A DNA stretch of 63,477 nucleotides, filler included, from Reticulomyxa filosa (taxonomy: Eukaryota; Protista; Foraminifera), in the NCBI GenBank assembly GCA_000512085.1. It is 17 parts of 17 records of this genome, joined end to end, with 100 filler letters (N's around TTAATTAATTAA, not from the genome) between each part and the next. Parts side by side here need not be neighbours in the genome. Positions count along the whole stretch, not along the records: positions 49,439 to 62,237 come from ASPP01001715.1; 16 more parts are not named here. One strand, given 5' to 3'. The notes beneath the pieces are model-generated. The model had not been told where the DNA came from. It saw only the letters and a program-made list of their open reading frames with translations, and ran no database searches. Shown here in pieces: positions 1,754 through 62,237 of the stretch (positions are counted from its first letter, which is position 1; each line of letters opens with the position of its first letter). The position numbers and the translations under genes are program-made.

Positions 1754-4700
1754 TTAAATTTTTAAGTTTTACTTATTAAGTGATAACTCGCTCACGTGTT
1801 GCTGGAGTCAAGGTGATGTCATTCATATCTTTTTTTAAAAAAAATTTGTTATAATGTACAAATCTGCATTAATGAACATGTCATAAGTACCCATTTCATT
1901 TTTCGTGCATTACACTTTTTTTTTTGAGTTATGGAAAAATGTGAAAACAATTTTTCATCAAAAAGATTTAGAAAGGCAGCTAGAAAACGAGAGAATTGAA
2001 ATATTCAAAAATTACACTGGTAATAGATATTAACAGTTAGTTTTTCTATTTAAATGAATTATCCTTATAAAGTGACTTGACATATCAAATTTTTGTCTTT
2101 AACTGTTGTCCTTTACACTCAGTGTATACGAACTTGAAGTCGGTCCAAGCACGTTTTGTGCATTGGGAAAGCTGACAACAGTTTATTATTTAAGCAATTT
2201 AATACTCAAGAAAGAGTGCTTGTGGTTTACTCTTGAATGATACGCATATCTGAAAGTTGATAAGAAAAAGAAATATAAGAAACGCCTATATTGCTGACTT
2301 TTAGCAGAATGAGATGAAATTTGAATTACTTTTGCTTATTTACAAATCAAACTATTCCACCACGTTGTGTCAACAAAAAAAATTAGTTTGATTTGATTTC
2401 AACTTAAAACTTATTCTTATTCAAATTACAATAACTATAAAAATTGGAACTAAGTTTTTTTCTTTGTGATACAACTTACATTTCAAGCATGTGATATTCA
2501 TGGAAACTTTTCAATACAAATAATATAACAATTTTTTAGATTGCCCAAAGAGTATTCTTTTAAAAGAAAATTGAACGGTGACTGGAACTTGTCTTTAACA
2601 ACCTTCCTTTTGAAATTGATATTAAAAGTTCAAAGAGTTTGTCATCTTACAACAACTTTAGATTTGTACATTAAAGATTAAAGTAGGATGGACCAATGGT
2701 TTTGACAAAATTGTTTTCAGTTATGTTGTTATGTTTCTTTTGTTTGCTTGTTTTTCATTCAGGGATAATTATTACCGAGACCAAATATGAACTCTTGTTT
2801 TTCAAGTAAACGAAAAGTCTCAACTGAATAAAAAGTAATTCTTTTCAGCAAGAAGCACGGTCTTGATAAAGAAAGCTGTACTTTGGTACAAAATGCAACT
2901 TTTCCTTTCTCAAAGGCAAGGTAAATCACAGTATTTATTAAAAACTCTAAAAAAATTACTCAACAGTCAAGCAGGAAAAGTCAAATCGTGGACAATTAAA
3001 CATGAACAAAGAAAGTATTACCACTCATGAATTAATTAATCATTATCCTCTCTTTCTTGAAGTTGTGCATTTTTTGATAGAGCACGATATTTTCTTTAAT
3101 TCTTTTCTAAAATACCTGTTTTGACTTATCACATGATTTTCTATTGATAAAAGACAATGCTAGAAGCAAGCAAAGTAAGAGATTTCCAAATTTTTTGCAA
3201 TATTTTTAGACAATTTCTTTGTGGCATTGAAGAATTAAATTGAAAAAACCAGAGATCGAGAAGAAACTGTATTGGTAAATGAGGGTTTTTGGCTATTTTT
3301 CATTAAGCAAAGAAAACAAGTAAAAACTTCATTACACAAACAATGTTCAATACCTTGCATAGACTTTATCCAAACCCATTTCTGCAAGTTAATGTTATTT
3401 TTTGGGCGCATCAAAAATTGGCTACAAAACAATAGCTTAAAAATCCAATGTTAAAATCAAATAATAGGAATACAACACGTTACGAAAACACAGATTGGAT
3501 TATCTTTCAATTTCATTTCAAGAATCACCTCATCTCTTACATCTTCTAAGTTAGTACAGAGAGAACAGTTTACTTCGTTAACTTAAAGTAAGAACATGAA
3601 ATATAAAAAACGGAATTAACCCTTTTTTAGAAACGCTTTGTTGATATTTCAAATGAAATCATTTGTATAGCTCATTTTACAATCTTTTTTAAAAGTTATT
3701 TTTGCATACAATTCTTTTAGGATTAGCTGACTTAAAAAACATACACAACTTTAAAAATGTGTCTTGGATTTGCTTCTTTTTGAACATATGCTTAAAATAA
3801 ATATATTATTTATCTAAAGAAATTAATGAATAAATCAAATGACTAGCTGATGCCATGTTCATATTTGCATGCGGACAATTTTATTGAAGGAATGAAATAA
3901 ATTTATTCTGAATGGATTTTATATTAATTTGTGATTTGAAAAGAAGATTGCATTAAACAATATTGTATTGGCAGCACAATATAATTTTGTTATAATTGAT
4001 AAATCAATTAAGATTGTCATCTTCAATTTGGTGTTGGCATAAAATGATTTCTTACATTCGAAAATAAGTACATGAATGACACTTTTTTTACGAAAGTATA
4101 ATCCTTATACTTAATAAAAATTTTTGTACAATTTAAATAAGAAATTCAATTTGTACTTATTAAGTGTTTTAAAGAAATTGTGTAGTAGCAATTATATGAT
4201 AGAATTTGTAAGATTTTAGTTCACTGTTGACAATGGCAATTACAAAAAATGATTGGTAAATTATCATCATTCATTATTCAAAAATATAAATTACAAAAAG
4301 AGCCAACCTCGAGCACTTTCGTCTTGTTTTCTTCGTTGTAGTTATGTACTATATCTAAAAACATACATGAAGAATTTTTTTAGTAAAAAAACAATTGATC
4401 AATACGCTTTTACGAAAGATTTAAAAAGGATTTCTATTTTTTAAATTTCTAAAAAACCTTTTTCATGTACTTTGCACACCTATCGCGAATATAAACAAGA
4501 ATTTGTCTCTTTTACACGTTTTAACGATATTTTAAAGCAAGAAACAAAGAACGGGCAAAAACTTTTCCTTTACCGAATTGCATTTTGAAAGATAAAAAAG
4601 TCCTAATGTGAAAGATTTTTCAAACTATGACGCAGATGATTACGAAGAGAAAAAGTGCACTAAGTTTTTTTATTGTTCTCTCTTTTATGTTTGGAATTTA

Positions 4701-8371: not shown

Positions 8372-9760
8372 TCAACCCCAAACACCAATAATACCACGCA
8401 TTGAGCCATAACAGATATTAATGCAATAACCAAAATCATCGTTGCTTTTACTTTTCTTTTTTAATTGTAAAAACTTAAGAGATGTTATTTCTTGACTTCT
8501 TTTGATCGAATATAATTCTATCTTACTTGATCGAATATCCCAAAATCGAATTGTATAATCAGATGACGCAGAACATATCACATTTGAATTGGCTTCAGCT
8601 GTACTATTCTTTATTACAAATTGTGAATATTCAACTGCATTCACAGCACTTGTATGTCCATTGAATAATTGAATCTGTTTACTAGATCGGATATCCCATA
8701 AACGAACACTGCGATCATTTGACCCAGATAATATTGTATTTGAACCACCAATCATTTCTAATTCACTTGATCCATATTTTACACTATTCACAAAACCTAT
8801 ATGTCCTTTGAATACATTTAATTGTTTGGTTGTTTCAATGTCCCATATTCGAATGGTTTTATCACTTGATCCAGAACAAGCTGTATATCCATTTCCACCA
8901 ATCACACCAATACTATTACTTTTATTATTATTATTATTATTGATATTACTTTGCAATGGTGAAATAGCAACACACAAAACATCATTTTTATGTCCATTGA
9001 AAACATGTAGTGAATTGGATGTTTCAACATCCCATAAACGAATTGTTTTGTCACGTGATCCAGAACACAAATATCTACCACCATTAAATGATGAAAATTC
9101 AATACCACAAACTCCAGCAGTATGTTTGTTGAATGCTTGCAATTCTTGAGTATGTTTGATATCCCAAAAACGAATGGTATTGTCAAGTGATGAAGAACAA
9201 ATAATACCACGACGATTATTATAACAATAATATTGTGAAAATTTCACACAAGTTACATAATCTAAATGCCCATTGAACAATTGGACTTGTTTATTGGTCT
9301 CTATATTCCATACACAAACGGTTCTATCACTCGATCCAGAGCAAATGAATTGACGATTATCAAATATAAAGCAATCAAGACTGTTCACTCGATCAGTGTG
9401 TTGTTTGAATGCTTTTAGTAATTTGGATGATGAATGAAACTCATCGAACGTGAAAAAATTATTTGCCTATATTAAATTATAAACATAAACAAATAAATAT
9501 TTGTTATCGAATAAACAAATAAACTTAACATATTTGACAACAAGCTTGTCAAAATTTTGGATCCATCCTAATTTAACATTTAATATTCGAATCCAATGTT
9601 GGATAATTTTTTGTATCTCTTCTTCTTCTGACTGATTCCATCACAATTACAAATCACACACAATAAAAGACCTAAAGGTAATTAGTTTACTGAAAGATTC
9701 AAAAAAGCTTACCAATGGCAGTTGCATTGACATTTTGTTTTTATTTCTTAAAGTAGGCAT
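8372..9760 (-). CDS. WD40-repeat protein, copy 1 (two short 5' exons plus a long WD exon)
   Basis: Repeated GH...SGSxDxTIRxWD motifs in ORF 8372-9388. Upstream exons MPTLRNKNKMSMQLPL|gtaag and EEEEIQKIIQHWIRILNVKLGWIQNFDKLVVKY|gttaag. Confidence 0.92.
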
Positions 9761-10510: not shown

Positions 10511-11852
10511 CTACCCCCAAATATGAATTGAACCATTATTTAAACCATAACACAAATTAACATCAATATCATTATTTCTTTTTTTGTTATTTTTTAATTG
10601 TAGAAATTTAAAACACAATATTCCATTTTTTTCTTTGATGACATATACTTCTTTTTTATTTGATCGAATATCCCAAAATCGAATTGTGCCATCACTTGAT
10701 CCAGAACATATTACATTCGAATTGGCACTAACTTCGATATTCTTTATTGCAAGTGGTGAATATTCAACAGACCATGTGGTATTTGTATGTCCATTGAACA
10801 CTTGAATTTGTTGACCAGATCGAATATCCCACAAACGAATACTTTTATCCGATGATCCAGATAATATTGTATTTGCATCACCATTGATCATTAATTCTTT
10901 CGATCCATATTTTACGCATCTAACCCAATTTTCATGTCCTTTAAATAAAATTAATTGTTTGGTTGTTTCAATATCCCATATTCTAATGGTTTTATCAAAT
11001 GATCCAGAACACATTGTATATCCATTTCCACCAATCACACCAATACTATTACTTTTATTGCTATTGTTATTGCTTTGCAATGGTGAAATATCCACACACC
11101 AAACACATTTTTCATGTCCATTGAAGACATGTAATGATTTATATGTTTCAACATCCCATAAACGAATTGTTTTGTCATACGATCCAGAACACAAATATCT
11201 ACCTCCATCAAATGACGAGAACTCAATTCCATAAACATGGTTAGTGTGTTGATTGCATATTTGTAATTGTCGATTATCTTTGATATCCCAAAAACGAATG
11301 GTTTTGTCTTCTGATGAAGAACAAATAACACTACGACAGTTCATGTAATGATGATATTGTGAAAATTTCACACAATTTACGTTACTTGAATGTTTATTAA
11401 ATGATTGGATTTGTTCATTATTTTTTACATTCCATAAACAAACTGTTGTATCTTCTGATCCAGAACAAATGAATTGATCATCATTGAATGTGAAACAGTC
11501 AATACTATTTACAAAATTGGTATGTCCAGTAAATGTCTTTAGTAATTTAGCTGACAAACGAAACATCTCGAGCATGAAGAAGTTAGTTGCCTATATTAAA
11601 TTGTAAAAAAATAAATATTTGTCATTCAATAAAACAAAAATAAAGCAAATAAACTTAACATATTTAATAACAATTTTGTCGAAATCATTGATCCATCCCA
11701 ATTTAATGCTTGATATTCGAGTCCAATGTTGGATAATTTTTTTGAACCTCTTCTTCGTCTGACTAGCTTAACCACAAACACAAATCAATACAATAGATAA
11801 CCAGCTTTGGAAAGATTGAAAAGATTCTTACCAATGATAGTTGCATTGACAT
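10511..11852 (-). CDS. WD40-repeat protein, copy 2
   Basis: 354-aa ORF 10511-11575 with WD repeats, the same 5' exon structure as copy 1, and the shared C-terminus LCYG..GSIHIWG. Confidence 0.93.
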
Positions 11853-26903: not shown

Positions 26904-27899
26904 TTACACAGATTTTCTTTGTTGAAAGGTAATATCATAGTCAATTGTGTCTTGACTTTCCACACAATACCATTCACCACTACCCTTTCTCTTAATATCT
27001 TCTCGAATTTCTCTTAGCATTTGACTTAAAGGATAGCCAATCTTGTATTTGGAAATAATTATATTTTTCATGCTTTCACTGAATAATGACAAATCAGCCA
27101 CTTGATACCCTTTTGTTGTTGACCATATCATTAAAAAGCCATTGTCATTATGCATGTTATTTTGTTCTTTATTATTTTTCCCTTTTATTGGAATGTTCTC
27201 TGCATTTTGAGGAACAACATTACCACGGCAGACATCAATAATGAATATTTTAGGACAGTCTTTCAAAGAATTTATTCGACTGCAATCAAAAGATGACCGA
27301 ATTTCATTAATCGGAATGGAATTTCCCTCGCTCGTTACCAATACATCTTCTTCATCTCCATGTCCGCTTATTATCATTATCAGTGCATCATACTCCTTTT
27401 TGTTTTTGTGAAGTTTATGAGTAGATATTAAATCTGCCAAAAATTCATTAACATCTTCTTTATTCATCTCAGGCTCTTCATTGCACACAAATTCGTAATT
27501 CAATTCTTGTTTAAATATGCTTTTGAAATTGTTGGTATCCCTATCTTTGACATTTTCGAGATTGGGCCATTTCTTGCTATCTTTGTATTCGCTAATAGCA
27601 ATCATCACTACTAATGCATTTTTAATTGTTTTCGTTTTTCCAATTACTATCTGTTGAGACGGGATCAAAGTAATTTTGAATGTAGGCTCCTTATTTTTAA
27701 ATTCTCCCATAACAACTTCATCTGTTTCAATAATATTATTCTTCACATCGACTATTTGCAGTTTTAAATTTTCTTTGTTTATCTTTTGAAAATCTTTTGG
27801 TTCTAAGCAATGATGGCATTGACAAAGAAGCTCTTCAAATGTCAATTGTTTCATTTTTATCAATTTTTTTCTTTCATCTACTATCGCATATGCTGTCAA
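26904..27899 (-). CDS. Caspase-like (peptidase C14, p20-type) domain; last exon of a Kelch-caspase gene
   Basis: KNALVVMIAISEY, YDALIMIISGHG (catalytic His) and CPKIFIIDVCRG (catalytic Cys), in caspase order and spacing. Confidence 0.88.
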   Translation of the reverse strand: MTAYAIVDERKKLIKMKQLTFEELLCQCHHCLEPKDFQKINKENLKLQIVDVKNNIIETDEVVMGEFKNKEPTFKITLIPSQQIVIGKTKTIKNALVVMIAISEYKDSKKWPNLENVKDRDTNNFKSIFKQELNYEFVCNEEPEMNKEDVNEFLADLISTHKLHKNKKEYDALIMIISGHGDEEDVLVTSEGNSIPINEIRSSFDCSRINSLKDCPKIFIIDVCRGNVVPQNAENIPIKGKNNKEQNNMHNDNGFLMIWSTTKGYQVADLSLFSESMKNIIISKYKIGYPLSQMLREIREDIKRKGSGEWYCVESQDTIDYDITFQQRKSV

Positions 27900-27927: not shown

Positions 27928-29753
27928 TTAGAAACAAGAACAAAAGAACACACAATTAATTAACTTCATCTTCTTTGTTGTCTTGATTAATCTATTGCAA
28001 ATGGCACACATCAATATATATAGAGTATAATCAATTAAAGAACATAACGTAACAAATTCCAGGTAACCAACAATGGAAAAACGAATAGAGCTGATGTCAT
28101 TCTTTGTGATTTCATTCTTCCATTTGCATTCATTTAATAACCATTCTCGAAATTGTACATTTGACATTGTATTAAACTTTTCAATTACTTCTGCTTTATC
28201 TCTTTGTCCTCTTTGATTCCACCATTTCATCCATTTTTTATATTTTTCCTGGATTTTATTTTATTTTGAAATATATTAAATATAAACAAAACAGAACAAA
28301 AAAAAACACATTTCAACTTCTTCTTCTTCCGCTCTCAGTTGAACTGAGCCTTTCATTTCTTCTTCGCTCAGCCATTCACTCGCTATTGCATTCATGTGTG
28401 TTGACACAAATACCTTATTTTCATTTCTTCCTCCGATAATATGTACATGAGTATTGTCTTCATTCAATATTACAGCACAGTCAAATAGTGGGCTGGGTAA
28501 AGTGTTTTGAAATGTCTTCCATTTGTTTTTTCGAAGTGAATACTTGTGAACTGCTTTTGACATAATCTTCTTATCACCAAATTTGCCATTCCATCCACCA
28601 AAGAATAAGATGGTGTCATTGACAAACACATACGCATATCTAAAGAATGGTGCGATATCATCACAAACAGGTAGTTTACAAAATTGAAAAGTATTGTCAT
28701 CTTCATCATAGTCAATTGATAGTCCCGTCTTTTCACAAAACAATATCATTCTACAATTTTTGTTCTCATTTTTTCCTTGCTTTGTTTTCGTCATTTCTTG
28801 TCCATTTTCTGACGTTGATACAAAGCAGTGATACCATATCCAATTATCAGTTGGTAATCTATCATGTTTAATAAATTGAAATGTATTTAAATTAAACACA
28901 CTAATATTATTATAATAATAAGTGATGAATAACAAATGATTGTTGCTTCCACCAATCACCGCACGCATTCCAATATAATAATCTTCATCCCTTCCAATAT
29001 GAATTCGATTATTGTGATTGTCTGTAAAAGGAACCCATTTATTGTAATTGTTTAATTTCTTTGATTTATTAATTTCATTGTCATTACTCCAACACTTACA
29101 TATTTCATCACCAATGTATGTCGTATATTTGTATTACCACCAAAAGACAGCAAAGTTATTTCATTGTTGTTATCTGCCAGTTTCACTACACAATGTCCTT
29201 CTAACGTGACATCACTTGGATACTTACAGATCAGCTTACATTCGTTTCTGAGTGTATGATAAGAATAGAAAGCCCTTTTAAGAAAACTCCCACAAATGAG
29301 GATTTCGTATTTGTGTAGCACACACTAAGACTGAGAAAGTGGATTGAACCAATCCTTCAAACTTTGAAAAAGAGCTGATGTAGCAATATTTTGAATTTGC
29401 TTAGCTTTTGTTTCAAGAAGTTGTTGCATTGTATTTTGATTGGAAAATAAAAAGCTCATCTCTGATTCCCATTTGACATTTGTGTATAGCTCTAAATCGG
29501 TATATTGCAATGTACTGTCCCTAATTTTGGAAGTCAAAGTATCAAATTTGGTTTCCATATCCGAAATGTAGTGATCATCCAAGTTATTACAAAACTCATA
29601 AAATGCATTTAATTCAGTAGGAGTTGTCGATAGATATATCTGTAAAACTGTCATGAAATTACTTGTCAATTTTTTATATTTGATAAATTTTTCCATTGCG
29701 AGGTCTAACTTTGATAAGTCAATTATATTTTCACCCAATTCACGAATACGCAT
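27928..29753 (-). pseudogene. Kelch-like beta-propeller N-terminal part of the Kelch-caspase gene, with in-frame TAG and a frameshift
   Basis: PLSQS*CVLHKYEILICG (TAG at 29325-29327); LLSFGG, RAVIGGSNNHLLFITY, ILFFGGWNG and HVHIIGG Kelch-like motifs; 1-nt deletion near 29090; small exon KWMKWWNQR...WLLNECKW. Confidence 0.75.
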
Positions 29754-37203: not shown

Positions 37204-37516
37204 GATCGACGAGAATTGATAATGTCACGTCACAATTATTCAAAAAAAAAAATCTCTAGTTTGTGTCAAGTAGTTGTATTTTTTTTGTCATTTGTCGACC
37301 AGAGCGCCTTAATTTACTTTTTCTTCTTCCTAAATTGTTCAAGGTCAAGAAGTTTCACTCCCAAGTCGTTCCGTCAAGTCTTTGCAATTACATTTGCCAG
37401 AAAGGAAGCATAGTAGCTTGTTCTCCCTGCTTTTTTTCCTTCCAGCCGCAGACAGTGTGTCTTTTTTGGTGGGTAATATAAAAAAAACTTTTCCCGAATA
37501 GGTGTGTTAGATAGTA

Positions 37517-37827
37517 ATGTCTACTCAAACTATAAATGATGCGCAGCCAGTGGACTCCAAGGAGAAAGATAAGACATTGGAAAGCCCTAGCGAATCCTCA
37601 GCGTCAGAGTCGCAAGTGTTGGGAGGGACAGGTCTTGACATAAGCGAATCGAAGCAAGAAGCAAGCAATGTGTCCTCAAGCAATAGTAGCAGCAGTACCA
37701 ATGGGATAATCGACGCAACCGCAGGCACATTAGGAAGTCAAACAATAGCAACAGCAACAGCAACAACAACAGCAACAGCAACAGAAGCAACATCAATAAC
37801 AACACCGCCCCCACCCCCACCTCCAGC

Positions 37828-37859
<32 letters not shown>

Positions 37860-38632
37860 CGGCATTGTTAAGTAGCAATGGGAGTGAAAGTGGATCAAAG
37901 CTGATTGGCGGAGTGGACTGTGACGAAATGATAAAACGGCTGGTGGAGGCGAGGAACAATAAGCCCGGGAAAGAGGTGGACCTGCGAGAGAGTGATATCG
38001 AAAAGCTGTGTGTGAAGGCGAAAGAGATTTTATTGGAGCAGCCAATGCTGCTGGACATCACGGCCCCGGTCAAAATCGTCGGAGACATACACGGCCAGTT
38101 TTTCGATCTTTTGCGTTTGTTCGAGTTGGGCGGTGCCCCTCCGTCCACGAGCTACATTTTCTTAGGTTCAAAAAAAACATATGTATGAACTTTTTTTTCC
38201 CTCCTCTTCTTCTCCTAAAAATCTCTCTCCCCCTTTTTTTTGATGACAACTCCATTGTATACGTACAAAAAAAAAAAAGGGGGATTATGTAGACCGTGGC
38301 AAATAGTCACTGGAAACTATATGCTTGCTACTTTGTTTCAAATTGAATTGTTTTATCTGCTGCGCGGCAATCACGAGTGTGCCAACATCAATCGCATCTA
38401 CGGGTTTTACGACGAGTGCAAGCGACGCTTTTCGGTACACTTGTGGAAGATGTTCACCGATTGCTTCAACCGCTTGCTGGTGGCGGCGATCATCGATGGC
38501 AAAATCATTTGTATGCACGGGGGTCTGTCCCCCGAACTCAAGTCCATGGACTATCTACGCAAGATCAAGCGTCCCACCGAAGTACCCGACAGCGGGTTCT
38601 TGTGCGATCTCTTGTGGAGTGATCCCGACAAA
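37517..38632 (+). pseudogene. Ser/Thr protein phosphatase PP1 catalytic subunit with S/T-rich N-extension; disrupted and 3' truncated
   Basis: GDIHGQ, intron 38166-38279, [11 protein letters not shown] (TAG at a conserved Gln), a frameshift/deletion before [15 protein letters not shown] and DLLWSDP. Homology stops after PDK with no splice donor. Confidence 0.88.
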
Positions 38633-52214: not shown

Positions 52215-55200
52215 ATGACACAAGCAGAGGAAGCATCGCCAAGTCCGATTTCTATTGTTCCTCTTTTTCAGAAGTTAACATAATTTTTCAGTATACACGG
52301 AATTTATGTGCATTTTTTTTTTTAAGACCAAAACAAAACAAAAACAAACAATACTGAACACAAAAGATATCTGGCTGAAACTGGAAGAATTTTATTGAGC
52401 AGCAATGAAGAGGAGCTCAGTGTATGTTTGGAGAGCGATGTGAGCAAGAAAGTGATTGACAGCTTTGTGAACGGCGAAGAAGCCACATTAGTGTTGCAAA
52501 AACGAGTGATAACGGAAGAAATCAAATCGATGGAAGTGGACAATGGGATAACAAAATGCGTGTACGAGCTGTTCTCAGAGATTCCGGAGAGCAGCATCGA
52601 CACAAGGAAGGAGTGGTTAGTATACGTAAAAATGGAAGAAGCGCCATTGAACGAGGGGTCAATCCCATCGCAAGTGATGATAAGTCAGTTGAATTCGCAA
52701 TCTCCGTTGAGGAGTATTTTGCCGTACATTCGTCACAGTTTTGCTCCGACGGTAAGTCGTGTGGCACAGATGGAAATGGAGAAGCAGCAGTATCAGCAGC
52801 AACAACAGCAACAGCAACAACAACAGCAATTACAGCAACAACAGCAAGTGAAGCAGCAAAGCACAATGGCGACAAAGACAAATCAAGTATTGGAAAAGTT
52901 GCGCGAGTTGGAAATAAAGTTGGTCGAGAGTCAAGACGAGTCGTTGCTATTGAACGGAGTATCATTGGATCCAATTCGGGGCATTCAAGAATACGTTGCA
53001 ATATGCAGCGACGAACAAAGAAACAGGATTGAAAATGATTTGAATAGCACATGGGATTGGATACATTCGTCGTCGTCGAGTAACAACATGGAAACGCAAT
53101 CAAAGTCAAAGCCACAAATGCAACGCAAAATGGAATTGCTGAGGCAATTATCGGAAGAAACATCAATCAAAGAGATTCAAACGTGTCTGAAGCAATGGAA
53201 GGAACAAATCCAATCGGTGCTTCGTCGGTCCAATCCGTCGACGCTATCCACCGTTCGCAAGCAATTGCGCTTCTGGGAAGGCAAGCGCACCGCCATTGCA
53301 GAATTGGAAAAACAGTTGCAATCCCCGGGCGTTCAGGCTTCGTTGCACGTGTTGAAATTGAACAAGTCTATCTTTTGGATCACCACATTCCAGACACTCG
53401 GCGTCGAGGATGCGCTCAAGGAAGTGGACGTGCATTACAATGTGCTCGTCGCGTTTCCATTGCAAAGCGTACTCAATGCCATCAACGTACAAGACTTGAC
53501 CAAAGCGTGCTCCGAAATATTCAAGTATTTAGACTCGCCCAAAATTCGCACCACTACTCAATTGAAAAAATTGCGCAATTAAGTCGGGATAGCGGTCGCG
53601 ATATCGCCGAAAAGTTGCTGGATATCTTTTCTAAAGACTTGATGTTTATGAACTACGCCGACTTTATTGCGCGGACAAACGGGACTGATCGCTTGTTCCG
53701 CGAGTTTCAACACAAGTTCAGCAAGCTGCAAACCGAAGTTCGACACCAGCGACTACGAGAGCGCTATCACGGTGTGTGGACCTTGCGTGATGAAGACACT
53801 GAAATGAACAATTTGGAGAAAAGGATTGAGGCAATCAAACAAATTCGAGACTCTCATTATGTACTCGAAAATGCATTGGATCCGTCATTGTCATCCCCTT
53901 CACCATCATCGTCGTCCCTTTCCGTTGCCGACAAACAATTGCTCGAGGAAATGAAAAAGACACTTGTCGACGCTTACGAAGTCTTTCGTGCCATTGACAT
54001 TTTGCGGTGCTTAGATTCACAATGGGAGCAGTGTGCTCATACGTATACTGCAAAAATCGAAGAAATCGAAGAGCAATTGCGGCTAATGATTCGAATGAAA
54101 ATGGAACAGGCGGGCGATTCCAAAGAAATGTTTCGCGTTTGCGAACGCTTTAATAAATTATTTGTTCGCGATAAAATTCGAGCTGCCGTTTGGGATTTCC
54201 AACAAGAGCTGATCACCAATGTCGAAAAAGAAATCAAAGATTTGCTCGAGCGATACCGAAAACGTTATGCATCCATTCCTGCGAGTGCGTTGACGGAGTT
54301 GCGCGATATCCCTAGCGTTTCTGGAGAAGTGATTTGGATGAACCAATTGAAGCGACAGCTCAGCATACTTGAACGACGAGTTGATGCCGTGTTGGGGAAA
54401 AAATGGCAAGAGCGTTACAATAGCGGACAAGTGTTGGCCCAATTGATTTCGCGCTTTGCCGCCAAGTTGGATCCTAGACCCTTAATTGAACAATGGGTTG
54501 CCGAAGCTAATTTATTACCCCTTTTTGATGTCGAATCCTTTATCTTTTCGATCGAACAAGGGACTATCGGAGGACACATGTCACTGGCAGTCAACTTTGA
54601 CGAGCAATACGTAACGCTGTTCAAAGAAATGAGACGCTTGTCGTCTCTCGGAATACGTATCCATAAAGGAACATTGCTCGCTCAACGGGCCTTGCAAGCA
54701 ACAAGAGTTGATGTGCAGCTGACGCTAGACTGTGTCGATGTGAAGCGCAGATATCCCATTTCCGTGAAGCTGAAAGAGGCCGTGGCCATGTTCGCGCGCA
54801 CATGCAGGCAAATTGAAGAATGCACTTTGCAGATGGACGACGTGGATGCGCTATCCATGATGCCACACTTGCCCGCCTTGGTGGATGAGCGAAAACGCAT
54901 TTGTCAGCGACAGTTTTTGAAAGGAGCAGAGCGTCGGTGGAGCACCCCGGATCGTCTGTTGAGTGAATACGTGGATGCATTGGCCAAACAGGTACTGGAG
55001 CTGCAAGACAACACCAAGCGCGCACTGGACTTGACTGAGAGAACCAATCACATTTGCTGGAGTTGCAACAGTGCAGTTTGGTGTCCACTGATTTGGAACA
55101 ACACATGGATCAGCTGCGAAACATTGTGTTGCAATTGGATGACTTCAACTTTTCTGCGGTATCGAGTTGGGTTTGTCATTTGAATGACAAAATTGAAACT

Positions 55201-58200
55201 GTTTGCTGAAACGGCTGATGAAATCATCTGTGGCTGGAGCGAAACACTTGATTCCAATTGGCCTGTGGGAGCATCGACCAACGAAATTGAAAGTTGCAAA
55301 CACGCAAACACGTTTTGGAGAAACTCGCCCATTCTTCACGTTATCACCATCAGCTCCAATCAGAAAATCGAAATTGAACCTCCAATGATGGAATCCAAAT
55401 TGAACCTTGGACAAGACTTGCAAATGTGGTTGGCCAAGATCGTCTCGTTGAAACGTCCCACTGTATACTCAAAAGAAGAAAAGGACAATGACAAAGAACA
55501 GGGAGAAGAGGAAACGTTCCGATCGATATTGAATGCCGTCAAAATTGAAAACATTATTCAGTGCTATGCGAAAATTCAAAAAGTTTGCGAAGTCGCCACA
55601 AAGTATGCGTATTCATGGCTTTCATATCAAGGTCTTTGGGATTTGAAACTTCCCGATATTTTTGCTGCACTTGACAACAACATCACTTATTGGATGCGAC
55701 TCATCAACGACATGAAACAAGGCCAAGAGGCGCTTAACACTACAGAAATTGAAAAAAGCTTTGGTCCAATTGTTATTCAATTTGGGACGCTCAAAGCCAA
55801 AGTGTCGAACAAGTTTATTGATTTTTACAAGCAGATTTTGAAAATGTTCATTGCACGATTGGATAAAATAATACGAGAACTTCACGCAAGCGCGACAAAG
55901 GGAAAGTACGAATTGGAAGAAACATCATTCACTGTTTCCGACGTCCACGATATTGTGAAGGCTGTGACTGTGTTACAAAAACTTCAAAAACAATCTTCCG
56001 GATGGCAAGCGTTGTGGGAAGAATGCAAAGAAGCCGAAAAACTGTTACAACACTATCGCTATGTATTACCCCCAACATGGATTCGATCGACGCAAATGAA
56101 AGGAGTATTGGATGATTTTTTTGCAGTACTTCACAAACGTTGGAATGCATTGCAACTGAACACTCAAGCAATTTATGCGAAATTAGATGAACAGATTGAA
56201 GTTATTGTTGCAGATGTTCAACGAACAGAACAGCGATGGCGCATTGAAAAACCTACACATGGATGGGCAAAAACATGGACAGAAGAAGAAGTTCAAGATT
56301 GGCTGCGACAGTATCACAATGGAACATTGCGATTTGCCGTGGAAGCGGTCAAACGCAATTCAATTGATGGAAGAGCGTTGCATAAAATAGCAACAGCAAA
56401 TGATATGCGCATATTCTCCATTGTACAAACCAAATTTGAAGTTCCGGATACGAAACAGCAAGAGCTGCTTGTGAGTGGCCTTCGAACGCTGTTGTTCACA
56501 CGAGCAGACATTGAAAAAAAACTGAACGAATTTGAAGTTATTTTAAATCGATTGGAAGAGACGTATAAAGATGTAAAAAGCGCCAAAGACGCAATGTGCA
56601 TGGTCATGGAAATTAATGTACACAATAACAATGACAGCATGATTGACACGATGACAAATGAAAGAGAAGTTGAAATTGAAAGAGTATTGGATTCAATTCA
56701 AAAAGAGTTGACCGGATTGAAAGAAGTGTACCAAATACTTTCAGACAAACAAGATGAACTCGACACGATTGGAAAGCAGCCCTTTTTAGGAATGGACACA
56801 AAAGCATTAGCTAAAATGTTGAGACAAATGGAAGAAGGATTGATGAAATTGCCAAACAAAATCCGACAATACCAAGCTTATGACAAATTTGTATCACTGT
56901 TAAAACATAAACAAAAAATGAATAAAAACATGTTTACTGACTTATCTTGTGGAATTCTGAGACCAAAGCATTGGAATGAGCTGGACAAACTATTGAACTG
57001 GTCCAAAAAATAGTACGACAGGGACAAATAATGTAATGGACCCCCATGGCATGAAATTGGAAGATTTCTGGAACATGGATCTGTCGCAGCATCACAAGGC
57101 CATTTCAGAAATTGTGACAATTGCACGTGGAGAAAGCAACGTGGAGCACTTTTTGAATGAGATTACAGAAAAGTGGGGTAAGACATTGTTTGAAGTGATT
57201 GACTCCAAAGGCAAAAAATGTCCATTGGTAAAAAACTGGATGGAACTGCGTGAGCAAGTGGGCGAAGCATTGACGAACGTGATGCAAATGAAGCAATCGC
57301 CTTTTTACAAATCGTTTGAACGTGATGGAGCAGTTTGGGAAGAGAAGTTGAATGCAGCACAGGCCATCTTCGATGTGATGACCGACGTTCAGCGACGGTG
57401 GGTATACTTGCAAGGAGTGTTTCAAAATAGCGTGGACGTGCAAAAGACATTGGGATACATGTTTCAAAAGTTTAAAGGCTTTGACCGAGAATTTGTGCAA
57501 TTGATGCGTGGAATTAAGCAAGATCCATTTGTGGATCATTGGATAACACCGGAAAAGAATTTGTTGCATATGTTAGAGACGAACCAAAGTACACTCAACA
57601 CAATTCAGAAAGCATTGAATGAGTATTTGGAGTCCCAACGCGCGGCATTTTCCAGATTTTACTTTATCGGAGACGAAGATCTGTTGGAGATCATTGGAAG
57701 TGCCAAAGACCCAAAGGCCATGAATCGACATTGGTCGAAGATGTTTGCAGGTATTTCACAGGTGGAGTTGCAGCCAGAGAATGACTCGATCATTGTTGGC
57801 ATGTCATCGAGAGAAGGCGAGCAAGTATTGTTCAAGCATCCCATCGACGTCACCAAGACTGAACGTATCCAAGATTGGCTGATGCAAGTGGAGCAACAAA
57901 TGCGTCTGACATTGGCGTCGCTGTTGGAAGAGGCACTATTCACACATGCATCCCCACAGCAGGTGAAGTCATATTTCGAATGGATCGCAAAGTATCCCGC
58001 GCAAGTGGTATTGTTGGCCACACAAGTGCGATGGTCGGAACGAGTTGAGAGTGTGTTGCAAAGCAAAAGTAAGAGTAGTGACAAAAATGAAGAAAATGAA
58101 GAAAAAGACAGCAATGTTAACATGTGTAAATTATTGGAAGAAATAGTATCCACTCTTGGACTATTGGCCAATTGCGTATTGCAAGGAACACTGGAATCGA

Positions 58201-61200
58201 AAATGCGAAAGTTGTATGAGCAACTGATCACAGAATTGGTGTATCAAAGAGACGTGACAAGAACACTGATAAAAGATCATGTGTGCAGCACAAGTGATTT
58301 TCAATGGCTATCTCGAATGAGGTTTTATTGGAACCGTTTTGAAAAAGACGTGTTAAAGAAATTGGAAATTCGAATTAGTCGAGCCAAGTTTTTTTACGGA
58401 TTTGAGTACTTTGGAGCCAATGAGCGCTTGGTGCAAACACCTCTGACCGACAAAGCGTATTTCACCTTATGTGAAGCATTGCATTCGAAGCTGGGAGGCA
58501 ACCCTTTCGGCCCCGCAGGCACGGGGAAAACAGAGTCAGTGAAAGCATTAGGCACCCAATTGGGTAGATTCGTGTTGGTATTTTGCTGTGATGAAACATT
58601 TGACTACAACGCTATGTCGCGCATTTTCGTGGGTCTCTGTCAATGTGGAGCATGGGGATGCTTTGACGAATTCAACAGATTGGAAGAGCAAATCCTATCA
58701 GCAGTGTCGCAACAAATTTTGACTATTCAAACAGGGTTGCGCGAAAATGCGGGAGAGATCGAGCTGAACACGAGTCGCGGTCTGGAGAAAGTGCGTCTCA
58801 ATCACGACATGGGCATCTTTGTGACAATGAATCCGGGCTACGCAGGCCGTTCGGAACTGCCAGATAATTTGAAGCAGCTGTTCCGAGGTATTGCAATGAT
58901 GCAACCAAATCGTGTGTTGATTGCACAAGTGATGTTATTTTCGCAAGGCTTTGGTACGGCCGAGCAGTTGTCGTCAAAGATTGTATCTCTATTTGAACTG
59001 TGTAGTGATCAATTGTCCAAGCAAAGTCATTACGATTTTGGATTGCGTGCATTGAAGGCCGTATTGCGCAGTGCAGGGAATCTGAAGCGACGAGAGCAGA
59101 TGGAATTGACCATCGTTGGAAATGGACACGAGTTAACTCGCATGTCACCCGAAATGGAACAAGGCATTTTGATTCGATCGTTAATGAGCACGGTTGTGCC
59201 CAAACTTGTTTTGCAAGACAAACTGCTATTCGATAGTTTACTTGCGTCTGCATTCCCGGGAGCGAATATCGAAGGAATCAAAGAGGAGGAACTGAAGACC
59301 AAGATCAAAGACGTGGCCGAGGAAAGACATTATCGCATTGACGATCAGTGGATTACAAAGCTGTTGCAGCTTCACACTATTCAACACATTAACTGGGGGG
59401 TCATGCTCGTGGGACCCTCTGGCACGGGCAAGACCTCCTCGCGGGACGTGCTCATGGAAGCCATGCGTCGTATGGATAAGATCAAGATTGAAAAGTTGAA
59501 ATCGATCCCAAATCCATCACCAAAGAGCAGCTATTCGGAGTGTTGGACCCAACCACATTGGAATGGACTGATGGAGTGTTTACGGCAACGCTGCGCATGA
59601 TCATCGACAACGCCCATGGCGAAGCGAATAAACGTCATTGGATTGTGTTCGACGGCGATGTGGATCCGGAATGGGCCGAGAACCTAAACTCGGTGTTGGA
59701 CGATAACAAAATGCTGACATTGCCAAATGGAGAGCGTCTGGCATTAACAGATAATGTACGTATACTGTTTGAGACAGCCAATCTGAATGCAGCAACGCCG
59801 GCGACGGTATCACGTTGTGGCATGGTTTGGTTCAGTGAAGAGTGTGTGACTCTGCCAATGCTGTTTCACAATCAATTGGAATCGCTGCGCGCAAAACCGA
59901 CGTTGACTACGAGCGGAGGAGACATGGCACGTACACTGCTTGACTGGCAAAGGGTACATCACATTGTCGTGGATTATTTGACGCCATTGTTCAAAAACGA
60001 GGTTAGCTTCGTATACGAGGCCATGCGATGGGTGCAACGCAAACCACATGTGATGGAGTTCACCGAACTGCGAGCCGTGTGGTCGCTATTTTCGCAATTG
60101 CGAGGTGGCATTCGAAATGTGCTGGAATACAATGAGACCAATGAAGTGTCGCCATTATCCGATTTGCAAATACGCAGCTACATGGGCAAATACCTGCTGC
60201 ATTCGATCCTTTGGGCATTTGGAGGGTCGATGACATTGGACCTGCGAATGGAATTTGGCAATGTGCTGTGTCACATGGTCCGCAACAGTGACAACAACGA
60301 CCACGACTACGACGGCGTCAACAATGGCATTGACATTGGTCTCCCCGACACGAACTCGGATCTGTCCTTGATCGACTACGAAGTGAATGTAGAGAGACAG
60401 GAATGGACGGCATGGAAGGACCAAGTAGTGAATGAAGAGCTGGCCCCGCAACGCATCAAAGATGCCAATGTGGTGATCAACACCACCGATACACTTCGAC
60501 ACTCACGTGTAATCGGATCGTGGCTGCAAGAGCGAAGGCCAGTCATTTTGTGTGGCCCTCCTGGCAGTGGCAAGTCAATGACACTCACTGCTGTATTGAG
60601 CAGCAATCCGCAATACGAAATGGTCACACTCAACTTTTCGTCGACAGCCGATCCCAGTCTATTGTTCAAGTGCTTCGAGCAGCATTGCAAAGTACTTCGG
60701 ACATCGCAAGGGTATACGTTGCGTCCCATTATACCGAACAAGACATTGGTCGTGTTCTGCGACGAGTGCAATCTGCCCGCAGAGGACAAGTACGGCACGC
60801 AGACGATCATCACGTTCCTTCGTCAACTAATCGAAAAGGGAGGATACTGGAACCACGCGAATAGGAATTGGGTGCAATTGGAAAACATTCAAATTGTAGG
60901 CGCATGCAACCCGCCCACAGATGCAGGACGTATAGTATTGTCCCCTCGTTTTTTGAACCATTGTCCATTGGTATTGATCGACTTCCCAGGGAGAGAATCA
61001 TTATTGGAAATCTATGGCACGTTCGTTCGAGCGCTGTTGAAGCTGACACCGTCGCTGAAAGGCCTCGATGAAAACATCACGCACGCAATGGTGGACGTAT
61101 ACCAAAAGTCGCAGCAACACTTCAACGTGGACATCCAACCGCACTACGTATACAGTCCGCGAGAGTTGAGTCGATGGGTGCGCGGCATGTATCGAGCGTT

Positions 61201-62237
61201 GATCGACCTGGAGAACGTAGGAGGCACGACGGCGGAAGAGATGGTGCGTCTGTGGGCGCACGAAGCATTGCGTCTGTTCAGTGACCGTCTGGTGACAACA
61301 GAGGAAAAGGATTGGACATGGAAACTGATACGCGAAGTAGCAGATACACACTTGCACGCCGTCGACGATTTGGATCAGGCACTTGTGCAGCCGATTCTGT
61401 TTTCGGATTATCTGTCATGTCAAAGGAACTATCTGTCCGTGGGCAAAGCCGAGTTATATGAGTACGTTGTGCAACGTGTGAAAGCTTTCAACGAGGAAGA
61501 ACTCGACGTAGCGCTGGTCATCTATGACGAACTGCTCGATCACATTCTTCGCATTGATCGTGTGCTGCGACAACCCTTGGGACATTTGTTATTGGTTGGC
61601 GCTTCCGGCGCTGGCAAAAGCGTGTTTTCGCGCTTCGTGTCGTGGCTCAATGGCATGTCCACTTTCCAAATCAAGGTACACAAAGACTATACTCAGGAAC
61701 ACTTTGACCAGGATTTACGCAGCGTTCTCATTCGCGCCGGCGTCGACGGCGAACGCATCACCTTCTTGTTCGACGAATCCAATATCTTGCACAGTGCGTT
61801 CCTGGAACGCATGAATGCGCTGCTGGCGTCCGGTGAAGTCCCTGGACTTTTCGAAGAGGCCGAGCTGCAACAGCTGCTCGCCAAACTGCGCGAGGCCGCC
61901 AGGAAGGAGGAAGAACTCAAGGAGACCGAGGAGGAGCTGTATCAATGGTTCACCAGGCGCGTCCAACACAACCTGCACATTGTATTCACTATGAACCCCG
62001 CCGAGGGCGACTTTGCCAATCGCGCAACCACCTCGCCGGCTCTCTTCAATCGCTGCGTCATCGATTGGTGGGGCAATTGGTCCAAGGACGCGCTCCTGCA
62101 AGTGGCCAAGGAGTTTACGTCGCGTTGCGACTTGCAGCTCGCCAAGGCAAAGGGAGACGACTGGTCAAACAGTGACAATGGAGGAGAGAGCAGTGGTAAT
62201 AATGATAATGGCAACGGTGGTAATGACCAAGATAAAA
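52215..62237 (+). CDS. Cytoplasmic dynein-1 heavy chain (tail to AAA4; 3' truncated; several frameshifts)
   Basis: ELRDIPSVSGEVIW, WLSYQGLWDL, QRRWVYLQGVF and RFYFIGDEDLLEIIG. P-loops GPAGTGKT, GPSGTGKT, GPPGSGKS and GASGAGKS; FDGDVDPEWAENLNSVLDDNK; RATTSPALFNRC. Frameshifts near 53565, 55040-55230, 57005 and 59495, several in homopolymers. Confidence 0.96.
52785..52860 (+). repeat. CAG/CAA poly-Gln tract in the dynein N-terminus
   Basis: Encodes [24 protein letters not shown]. Confidence 0.9.
56264..56495 (+). other. SAM-like domain inserted in the dynein tail
   Basis: KTWTEEEVQDWLRQ...FAVEAVKRNSIDGRALHKI...QQELLVSGLRTL fits the SAM pattern W..EDV..WL......F..N.IDG..L. Confidence 0.7.

Follow-up and report, generated by a model that had tools for sequence, protein, structure and literature searches.

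A predicted SAM domain inserted in the neck of the cytoplasmic dynein-1 heavy chain of Reticulomyxa filosa and its relatives

Comparison with other dynein heavy chains indicates that the cytoplasmic dynein-1 of the foraminiferan Reticulomyxa filosa carries a predicted SAM domain within its neck, and that this SAM-bearing neck, as far as sequences can tell, is a real, conserved and new form of dynein-1. The domain is encoded by a 76-codon in-frame insert at positions 56264-56491 (+) of the window (the whole 63,477-nucleotide stretch of DNA that was analysed) and follows the equivalent of residue G1269 of human DYNC1H1. The heavy chain of dynein-1 is very uniform across eukaryotes. The insert represents a clade-wide difference at the activation site of this Reticulomyxa motor, and puts a long-standing question within reach of experiment.

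The heavy chain runs from about position 52326 to the end of its contig, is intron-free and is colinear with residues 16 to 3170 of a full-length relative, in several frames. Its assignment to cytoplasmic dynein-1, proposed in the initial annotation, is confirmed by a class-1 tail and motor and by a score of 3,528 bits to human dynein-1 versus 1,428 bits to dynein-2. In brief, five pieces are encoded on the plus strand: (i) the N-terminal tail (52326..53551), with a frameshift near 53551, (ii) a second tail piece with DHC_N1 (53543..55220), whose frame is shifted between 55054 and about 55220, (iii) the distal tail, the SAM insert and the start of DHC_N2 (55184..57013), (iv) the linker, AAA1 and the start of AAA2 (56997..59510), with Walker A and B of AAA1 intact, and (v) AAA2-AAA4 (59492..62237), ended within AAA4 by the end of the contig. 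A glutamine run is present near 52770-52835, and 16 extra tail residues relative to the environmental protein P0012 are found at 54660-54710. P0012 itself is an unbroken dynein-1 of 4,802 residues with the order DHC_N1, DHC_N2, AAA1-6, stalk and C-terminal domain.

The frame of the window copy is broken near 53551 and 55054, at about 55200-55220, at about 57010-57040 and near 59496. These breaks are probably assembly errors. Indeed, the contigs of a relative have one extra base at 53551, 55054 and 59496/59497, that is, at exactly three of the breaks, and the breaks lie in or beside short single-base runs, as would be left by pyrosequencing under-calls; for these two reasons an assembly error is considered likelier than a pseudogene. 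Besides, the parts read in the correct frame are free of in-frame stops across 3,150 aligned residues, and 27 of the 34 changed codons between the window copy and the relative are synonymous among the differences listed (11 of 14 within the insert), the tally being built on 35 of the 40 listed differences, with 22 further differences outside the list. A window copy decayed to a pseudogene, with the sister RFI_36140 as the working R. filosa gene, is unlikely, although the breaks number at least five, the window copy sits on a longer branch than its sister (0.44 vs 0.03), the R. filosa copies have another residue in place of the conserved SAM phenylalanine of helix 2, and decayed-looking R. filosa fragments holding parts of the insert exist (P0009, RFI_34071; P0010, RFI_38270). 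A pseudogene would be compatible with any of the mechanisms discussed below, and P0012 and the other relatives carry the conclusion on the architecture, whether the window copy is a gene or a pseudogene. At least three further R. filosa records contain the dynein region (P0002, P0009 and P0010), so dynein-1 is duplicated in this genome.

Other coding sequences were identified in the window: two similar tandem WD40-repeat ORFs (8372-9466 and 10511-11590, both -), a caspase-family (Peptidase_C14) ORF (26904-27899, -), a Kelch ORF (28276-29133, -), an N-terminal piece of a Ser/Thr phosphatase (37511-38188, +) and a 500-codon ORF that precedes the dynein on its contig (49391-50902, +), for which no Pfam family scored above noise. 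The last contig (62338-63477) is GC-richer, encodes an SRP54-type GTPase (E 5e-47) and may be bacterial DNA in the assembly.

The whole insert stretch lies in frame and free of stops within the ORF 55184-57013 (+). When this ORF is aligned with DYNC1H1, the alignment breaks at query residue 360 (human 1269) and restarts at query residue 500 (human 1318), leaving 140 residues between the aligned blocks in the query versus 49 in human. Likewise, the spacer from anchor to anchor comprises 132 residues in insert bearers and 144 in the window copy, versus 47 in five of the ten insert-less dynein-1 representatives (P0013-P0022) and 32 in one, the other four giving no measurable spacer. About 76 of the extra residues constitute the domain (W at 56264 to L at 56491, +), with five predicted helices and a short N-terminal arm, and the remainder falls in the loop past the AKDAM helix. 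The domain is preceded by the upstream anchor W-x-x-E-K-P-x-x-G (56237..56263, +), which aligns with the human W1261-G1269 region, and is followed by the resuming dynein tail helices (FE ... AKDAM; 56492..56599, +) and by the lengthened loop (56600..56680, +), which by alignment is about 10 residues longer in insert bearers and 12 more in the window copy. The exact 5' edge leaves slight room for doubt, since human helix 1272-1286 is similar to the first SAM helix as well; the placement at 56264-56491 is favoured because the helices after the insert match insert-less dyneins without a gap. The initial annotation had described about 80 extra in-frame residues and limits of 56264-56495; both hold, the limits within one or two codons, by the human alignment and the spacer measurement.

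A reading of the insert as an intron or an artefact was rejected, in agreement with the earlier statement that the segment lacks intron hallmarks. No GT is present at the 5' junction, the only GTs being at 56201, 56207, 56216 and 56291, and no joint skipping the insert was detected in four sequencing runs. GC3 is equal in the insert and its flanks (0.37). Furthermore, relatives keep the insert, which in P0012 lies within the unbroken 4,802-residue protein; the P0012 contig exceeds its ORF by only about 150 bases, which suggests that it is a transcript assembly. Contigs of run X3, from a relative about 90% identical, bridge the 5' junction (55651-56331) without a skip, and no X3 or X4 contig spanning the 3' junction by 31 bases was found; that X3 and X4 are RNA is only a guess. 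Runs X1 and X2 match the insert letter for letter and were left out of the counts, as they belong to a synthetic metagenome and may stem from the R. filosa assembly.

The insert is present in all nine relatives that span both junctions (P0001, P0002, P0003, P0005, P0011, P0012, P0024, P0025 and P0038), with one single-residue gap (in P0011) as the only indel across its 76 residues. It matches part of the R. filosa dynein heavy chain ETO35334.1 identically and is shared, with 66% identity, by the second R. filosa copy (RFI_36140, P0002). It is also borne by the environmental proteins P0003, P0005, P0011 and P0038 and by the full-length P0012, P0024 and P0025, and is partly covered by the shorter pieces P0004, P0006, P0007, P0008, P0010 and P0041. 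A tree built from the upstream flank alone (19 rows) places the nine insert bearers in one clade (100/99) on a long branch, and shows a single apparent origin of the insert. Mean identity is 0.42 for the insert, 0.50 for the upstream flank and 0.37 for the downstream flank (27 pairs, excluding P0012-P0025). Over AAA2-4, P0012 shares 69% identity with the window copy, versus 43-52% for ten outgroups. We infer that the environmental insert bearers belong to the foraminifera or to their close kin. Searches that were seeded with insert bearers and word-limited gave no clade member lacking the insert, and surfaced no dynein-1 from a named foraminiferan besides R. filosa, from a radiolarian or from a cercozoan. 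Nor was a donor of the SAM domain found: a search with 88 residues gave two matches, both dyneins, and one with 220 residues gave nine, all dynein fragments. A scan of the six frames of the window with the insert profile detected no second copy. In a pattern scan of metagenome contigs, two of 95 loci were dyneins (L004 and L086) and 93 were chance matches.

The identification of the inserted domain as a SAM fold, already put forward in the initial annotation, stands as a prediction. None of the three outcomes that the initial annotation named as contrary to its reading (a gap-free alignment to other dyneins, splicing out of the segment, no predicted five-helix SAM) was observed. The window insert itself scores under the Pfam cut-offs (SAM_PNT 18.1 bits vs 24; SAM_2 14.3 vs 20.5), and the orthologous inserts of L004 and L086 pass SAM_1 across the whole model (30.1 and 29.5 bits, cut-off 23). 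A profile from ten sequences matches the SAM domains of C. elegans and human STIM across the full insert (E 0.0013 and 0.006), with weaker matches to SARM1, CNK2 and SAMD12. The alignment-based structure model contains five helices (residues 16-28, 32-41, 45-52, 56-66 and 72-86), with a pLDDT of 85-90 over the domain; it derives from a 10-row alignment and is the best of five models, at 79 overall versus 60-69 for the others. The single-sequence model is weak (pLDDT 66, without a clear structural match). Among the Foldseek matches listed, the chains contain SAM domains, with probabilities of 0.97-1.00 and E-values of 0.016-0.5 (none below 0.001). Moreover, 50 of 50 VIA-align rows are SAM/PNT domains (Z 10.8 to 6.2), including a fit of 1.5 A over 70 residues with Scm/Sfmbt, and the top ESM Atlas matches, which serve as a lead only, are SAM clusters at 0.89. 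STIM SAM is ranked first by sequence and by Foldseek, but 39th by VIA-align (Z 6.4), and descent from STIM is therefore not established.

Conservation within the domain was compared over seven sequences, P0025 being dropped as near-identical to P0012. Mean identity is 0.65 in the N-terminal arm, 0.52 in helix 1 and loop a1-a2, which hold six invariant residues, 0.51 in helix 3, and only 0.23 in loop a3-a4 and helix 4, the mid-loop half, which holds none and varies in charge from -1 to +5. A conserved patch (56306..56344, +) runs from the end of helix 1 through loop a1-a2 into the start of helix 2, with Y, G, L, R and E invariant in 7/7, and the conserved region includes one invariant and one near-invariant Arg. 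Net charge over the domain ranges from +1 to -4, neutral to acidic. In 7/7 sequences loop a4-a5 is acidic, and helix 5, whose start is acidic or polar and D/Q-rich, ranges from -2 to +2 and is not consistently basic. Conservation thus measured on aligned sequences is one-sided and in part reflects the SAM core.

The insert is located in the stretch homologous to that on which human dynein docks dynactin p150 and the light-chain tower. Indeed, residues 1160-1400 of human dynein are described as binding the p150 ICD, and the IC-LC tower as docking on bundles 8/9 (10.1101/2022.08.17.504273), and bundles 7-8 form a heavy-chain contact, the third of the phi contacts, which has been proposed to stabilise phi (PMC5473941). 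The same source gives as phi contacts, through which charges on the linker lock phi, E1518-K1526 between the linkers and R1567, R1603 and K1610 against D3045 and E3049 between linker and AAA4; it names E1518K and R1603T as disease mutations of the phi interface and reports that K1610E together with R1567E opens phi (PMC5473941). By alignment to this numbering, the window copy encodes Arg at the E1518 position (57321..57323, +), Thr at the R1603 position (57579..57581, +) and Thr at the K1610 position (57600..57602, +). Position 1518 is R in all three full motors (window, P0012, P0025) versus E in eight of ten insert-less dyneins, position 1603 is T, Q and Q, respectively, versus basic in nine of ten, and position 1610 is T, A and A versus basic in ten of ten. 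The R1603T of the window equals the named human disease mutation, and E1518R resembles E1518K. R1567 (as K), K1526, D3045 (as E/D/D) and E3049 are retained, and P0012 also retains Y3451, E3624, R3628, R3659 and D3670 of the AAA5 and stalk contacts. As three of the five linker phi residues are altered and the others kept, the phi interface looks partly eroded, not gone. The alteration of these residues in insert bearers is, at the level of aligned residues, a new observation; since the tails of P0012 and P0025 are 94% alike, the three motors amount to two independent points. The ten insert-less controls for the linker are fungi and unnamed sequences, with no other rhizarian; as no cercozoan or radiolarian dynein-1 is among them, the linker changes could predate the insert or be unrelated to it.

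In the reading that we favour, with a probability of about 0.4, the insert would be a built-in docking site with a single face at the neck, replacing part of the phi-particle/dynactin switch. The termini of the SAM are adjacent, and the domain could therefore hang off the loop between two tail helices and leave the bundle unbroken. Its conserved face, formed by a1-a2 and a5, would point away from the bundle and bind either the sister heavy chain or a partner specific to the lineage, thereby altering who holds the neck and keeping the two motors open, and the shut state would lose stability through the weakened linker contacts. A single docking face is favoured by the one-sided conservation, the acidic or polar start of helix 5 and the neutral to acidic net charge, and is ranked above the appendage, polymer and RNA or lipid readings, in that order. 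The altered neck likely rewires the activation of dynein in cells with very fast transport.

Alternatively, the domain may pack against the tail bundle and form a structural appendage that selection maintains for folding, with no role in a switch, which is doubtful. Its most conserved element is indeed the N-terminal arm adjoining the junction, its overall rate is similar to that of the flanking tail, and STIM SAM, the closest match by sequence, works through its last helix, which docks on an adjacent domain in the same chain (PMC11506743). An appendage, however, does not account well for the invariant charged or polar R, E, Q and G in loop a1-a2, helix 2 and helix 5, which would lie far from the junction, or for the co-occurrence of the insert with the linker changes.

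It is improbable that the SAM polymerises head to tail, through its mid-loop and end-helix sides, and strings dynein dimers into teams with more speed and force, as the initial annotation had suggested in terms of motor clustering. Head-to-tail association is described as the commonest SAM-SAM mode (PMC9499636), SAMs that polymerise or form rings are among the best fold matches (SARM1, Scm, DGK delta and PHC3), and organelle speeds reach 25 um/s in Reticulomyxa, the classic case of such transport (PMC2113484). Such polymers, however, need two conserved complementary faces, typically acidic against basic, and the end-helix is basic in SARM1 and EphA2 (PMC9499636), whereas in the insert the mid-loop half is the least conserved part, without an invariant residue, and helix 5 varies in charge. 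Structural likeness among SAMs does not carry function. Prediction of a homodimer of the domain, with the alignment unused, scored 0.00, which speaks neither for nor against self-association. The clustering claim finds no support in the present analysis.

A bolder version of the docking reading, and quite an improbable one, would make the foraminiferan dynein-1 self-activating: the neck SAM would clamp heavy chains or neighbouring dimers, the loss of linker charges would disable the auto-inhibition by phi, and this motor, together with a second insert in AAA6, would be the fast motor of Reticulomyxa. The second insert, of about 80 residues, was observed in the AAA6 small domain of P0012 (about 4355-4440), in P0025 and P0026, and near 13150-13420 of L004, and is missing from all ten insert-less dyneins; its position falls past the end of the window's contig, no Pfam family was detected on it, and ESM Atlas gives dynein AAA-lid fragments. 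Tail-less motor constructs in the PDB begin about 50 residues past the position of the SAM insert. Artificial dimerisation turns such tail-less constructs into processive motors, and a SAM clamp beside the motor would, if this version is true, act like a laboratory dimerisation tag. It would also explain the long-unexplained fast dynein-like motor reported to drive both directions of transport in Reticulomyxa, for which the same dynein-like nucleotide fingerprint has been reported (PMC2288898) and which a 2026 preprint cites, in the text available, without giving a mechanism (PMC13371060). Of the link to fast transport drawn in the initial annotation, what stands is a correlation with one lineage.

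A direct tie of the motor to cargo, as also suggested earlier, is very improbable and unsupported if made through RNA, in the manner of Smaug/Vts1, or through a membrane lipid: the RNA-binding residues of Vts1p, which are basic or small and hydrophobic (R464, L465, K467, Y468, A495, L496, A498 and R500, at the end of helix 1, in loop a1-a2 and at the start of helix 5; PMC9499636, section 2.2.1) coincide in region with the conserved region here and its two Arg, but the domain is neutral to acidic, loop a4-a5 is acidic, the start of helix 5, compared by inspection and not by alignment, is D/Q-rich where Vts1p has A495, L496, A498 and R500, and no basic cluster such as that of lipid-binding SAMs is present.

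The initial annotation had called the architecture unfamiliar, and no description of a SAM domain in a dynein heavy chain was found in the literature searched; this literature did not extend to subscription journals or to the genome paper of R. filosa, so that absence from print is not proven. Section 9 of a survey of 3,272 heavy chains (Kollmar 2016, PMC5100056) describes no class-1 tail domain of such kind, and neither its main text nor two of its supplement files mention Reticulomyxa or foraminifera. The survey does report comparable lineage-specific additions, namely a WD40 tail in class 10 and loops or extensions in classes 12-16; in contrast to the present case, these classes are new and probably axonemal and, in the sections cited, include no SAM and no class-1 tail insertion.

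In comparison with DYNC1H1 and the Dictyostelium heavy chain, the motor is conventional in the full domain order of P0012, in its best PDB class by a wide margin and in the intact P-loops of the window copy, and differs from DYNC1H1 by the SAM after G1269, the longer loop before DHC_N2 and the altered E1518, R1603 and K1610; the intact P0012 offers an expressible full-length dynein-1 with a SAM. In comparison with SAM domains (SAM_1, SAM_2, SAM_PNT), the insert shares the five-helix bundle, the W...EV..WL start, the DG..L motif and the long last helix, but, with 74 residues over 63 positions, exceeds the Pfam model by about 10 residues and has a longer helix 4. It is nearest to the SAM of STIM EF-SAM by sequence and to SARM1, Scm/Sfmbt, Hyphen and CNK2 by fold. 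Unlike in STIM, the sequence upstream is dynein tail and not an EF-hand pair, no EF-hand family being detected in the Pfam scans, and unlike other SAM domains, the insert has a family-specific Y..G.LR...E patch and sits within the helical bundle of a motor.
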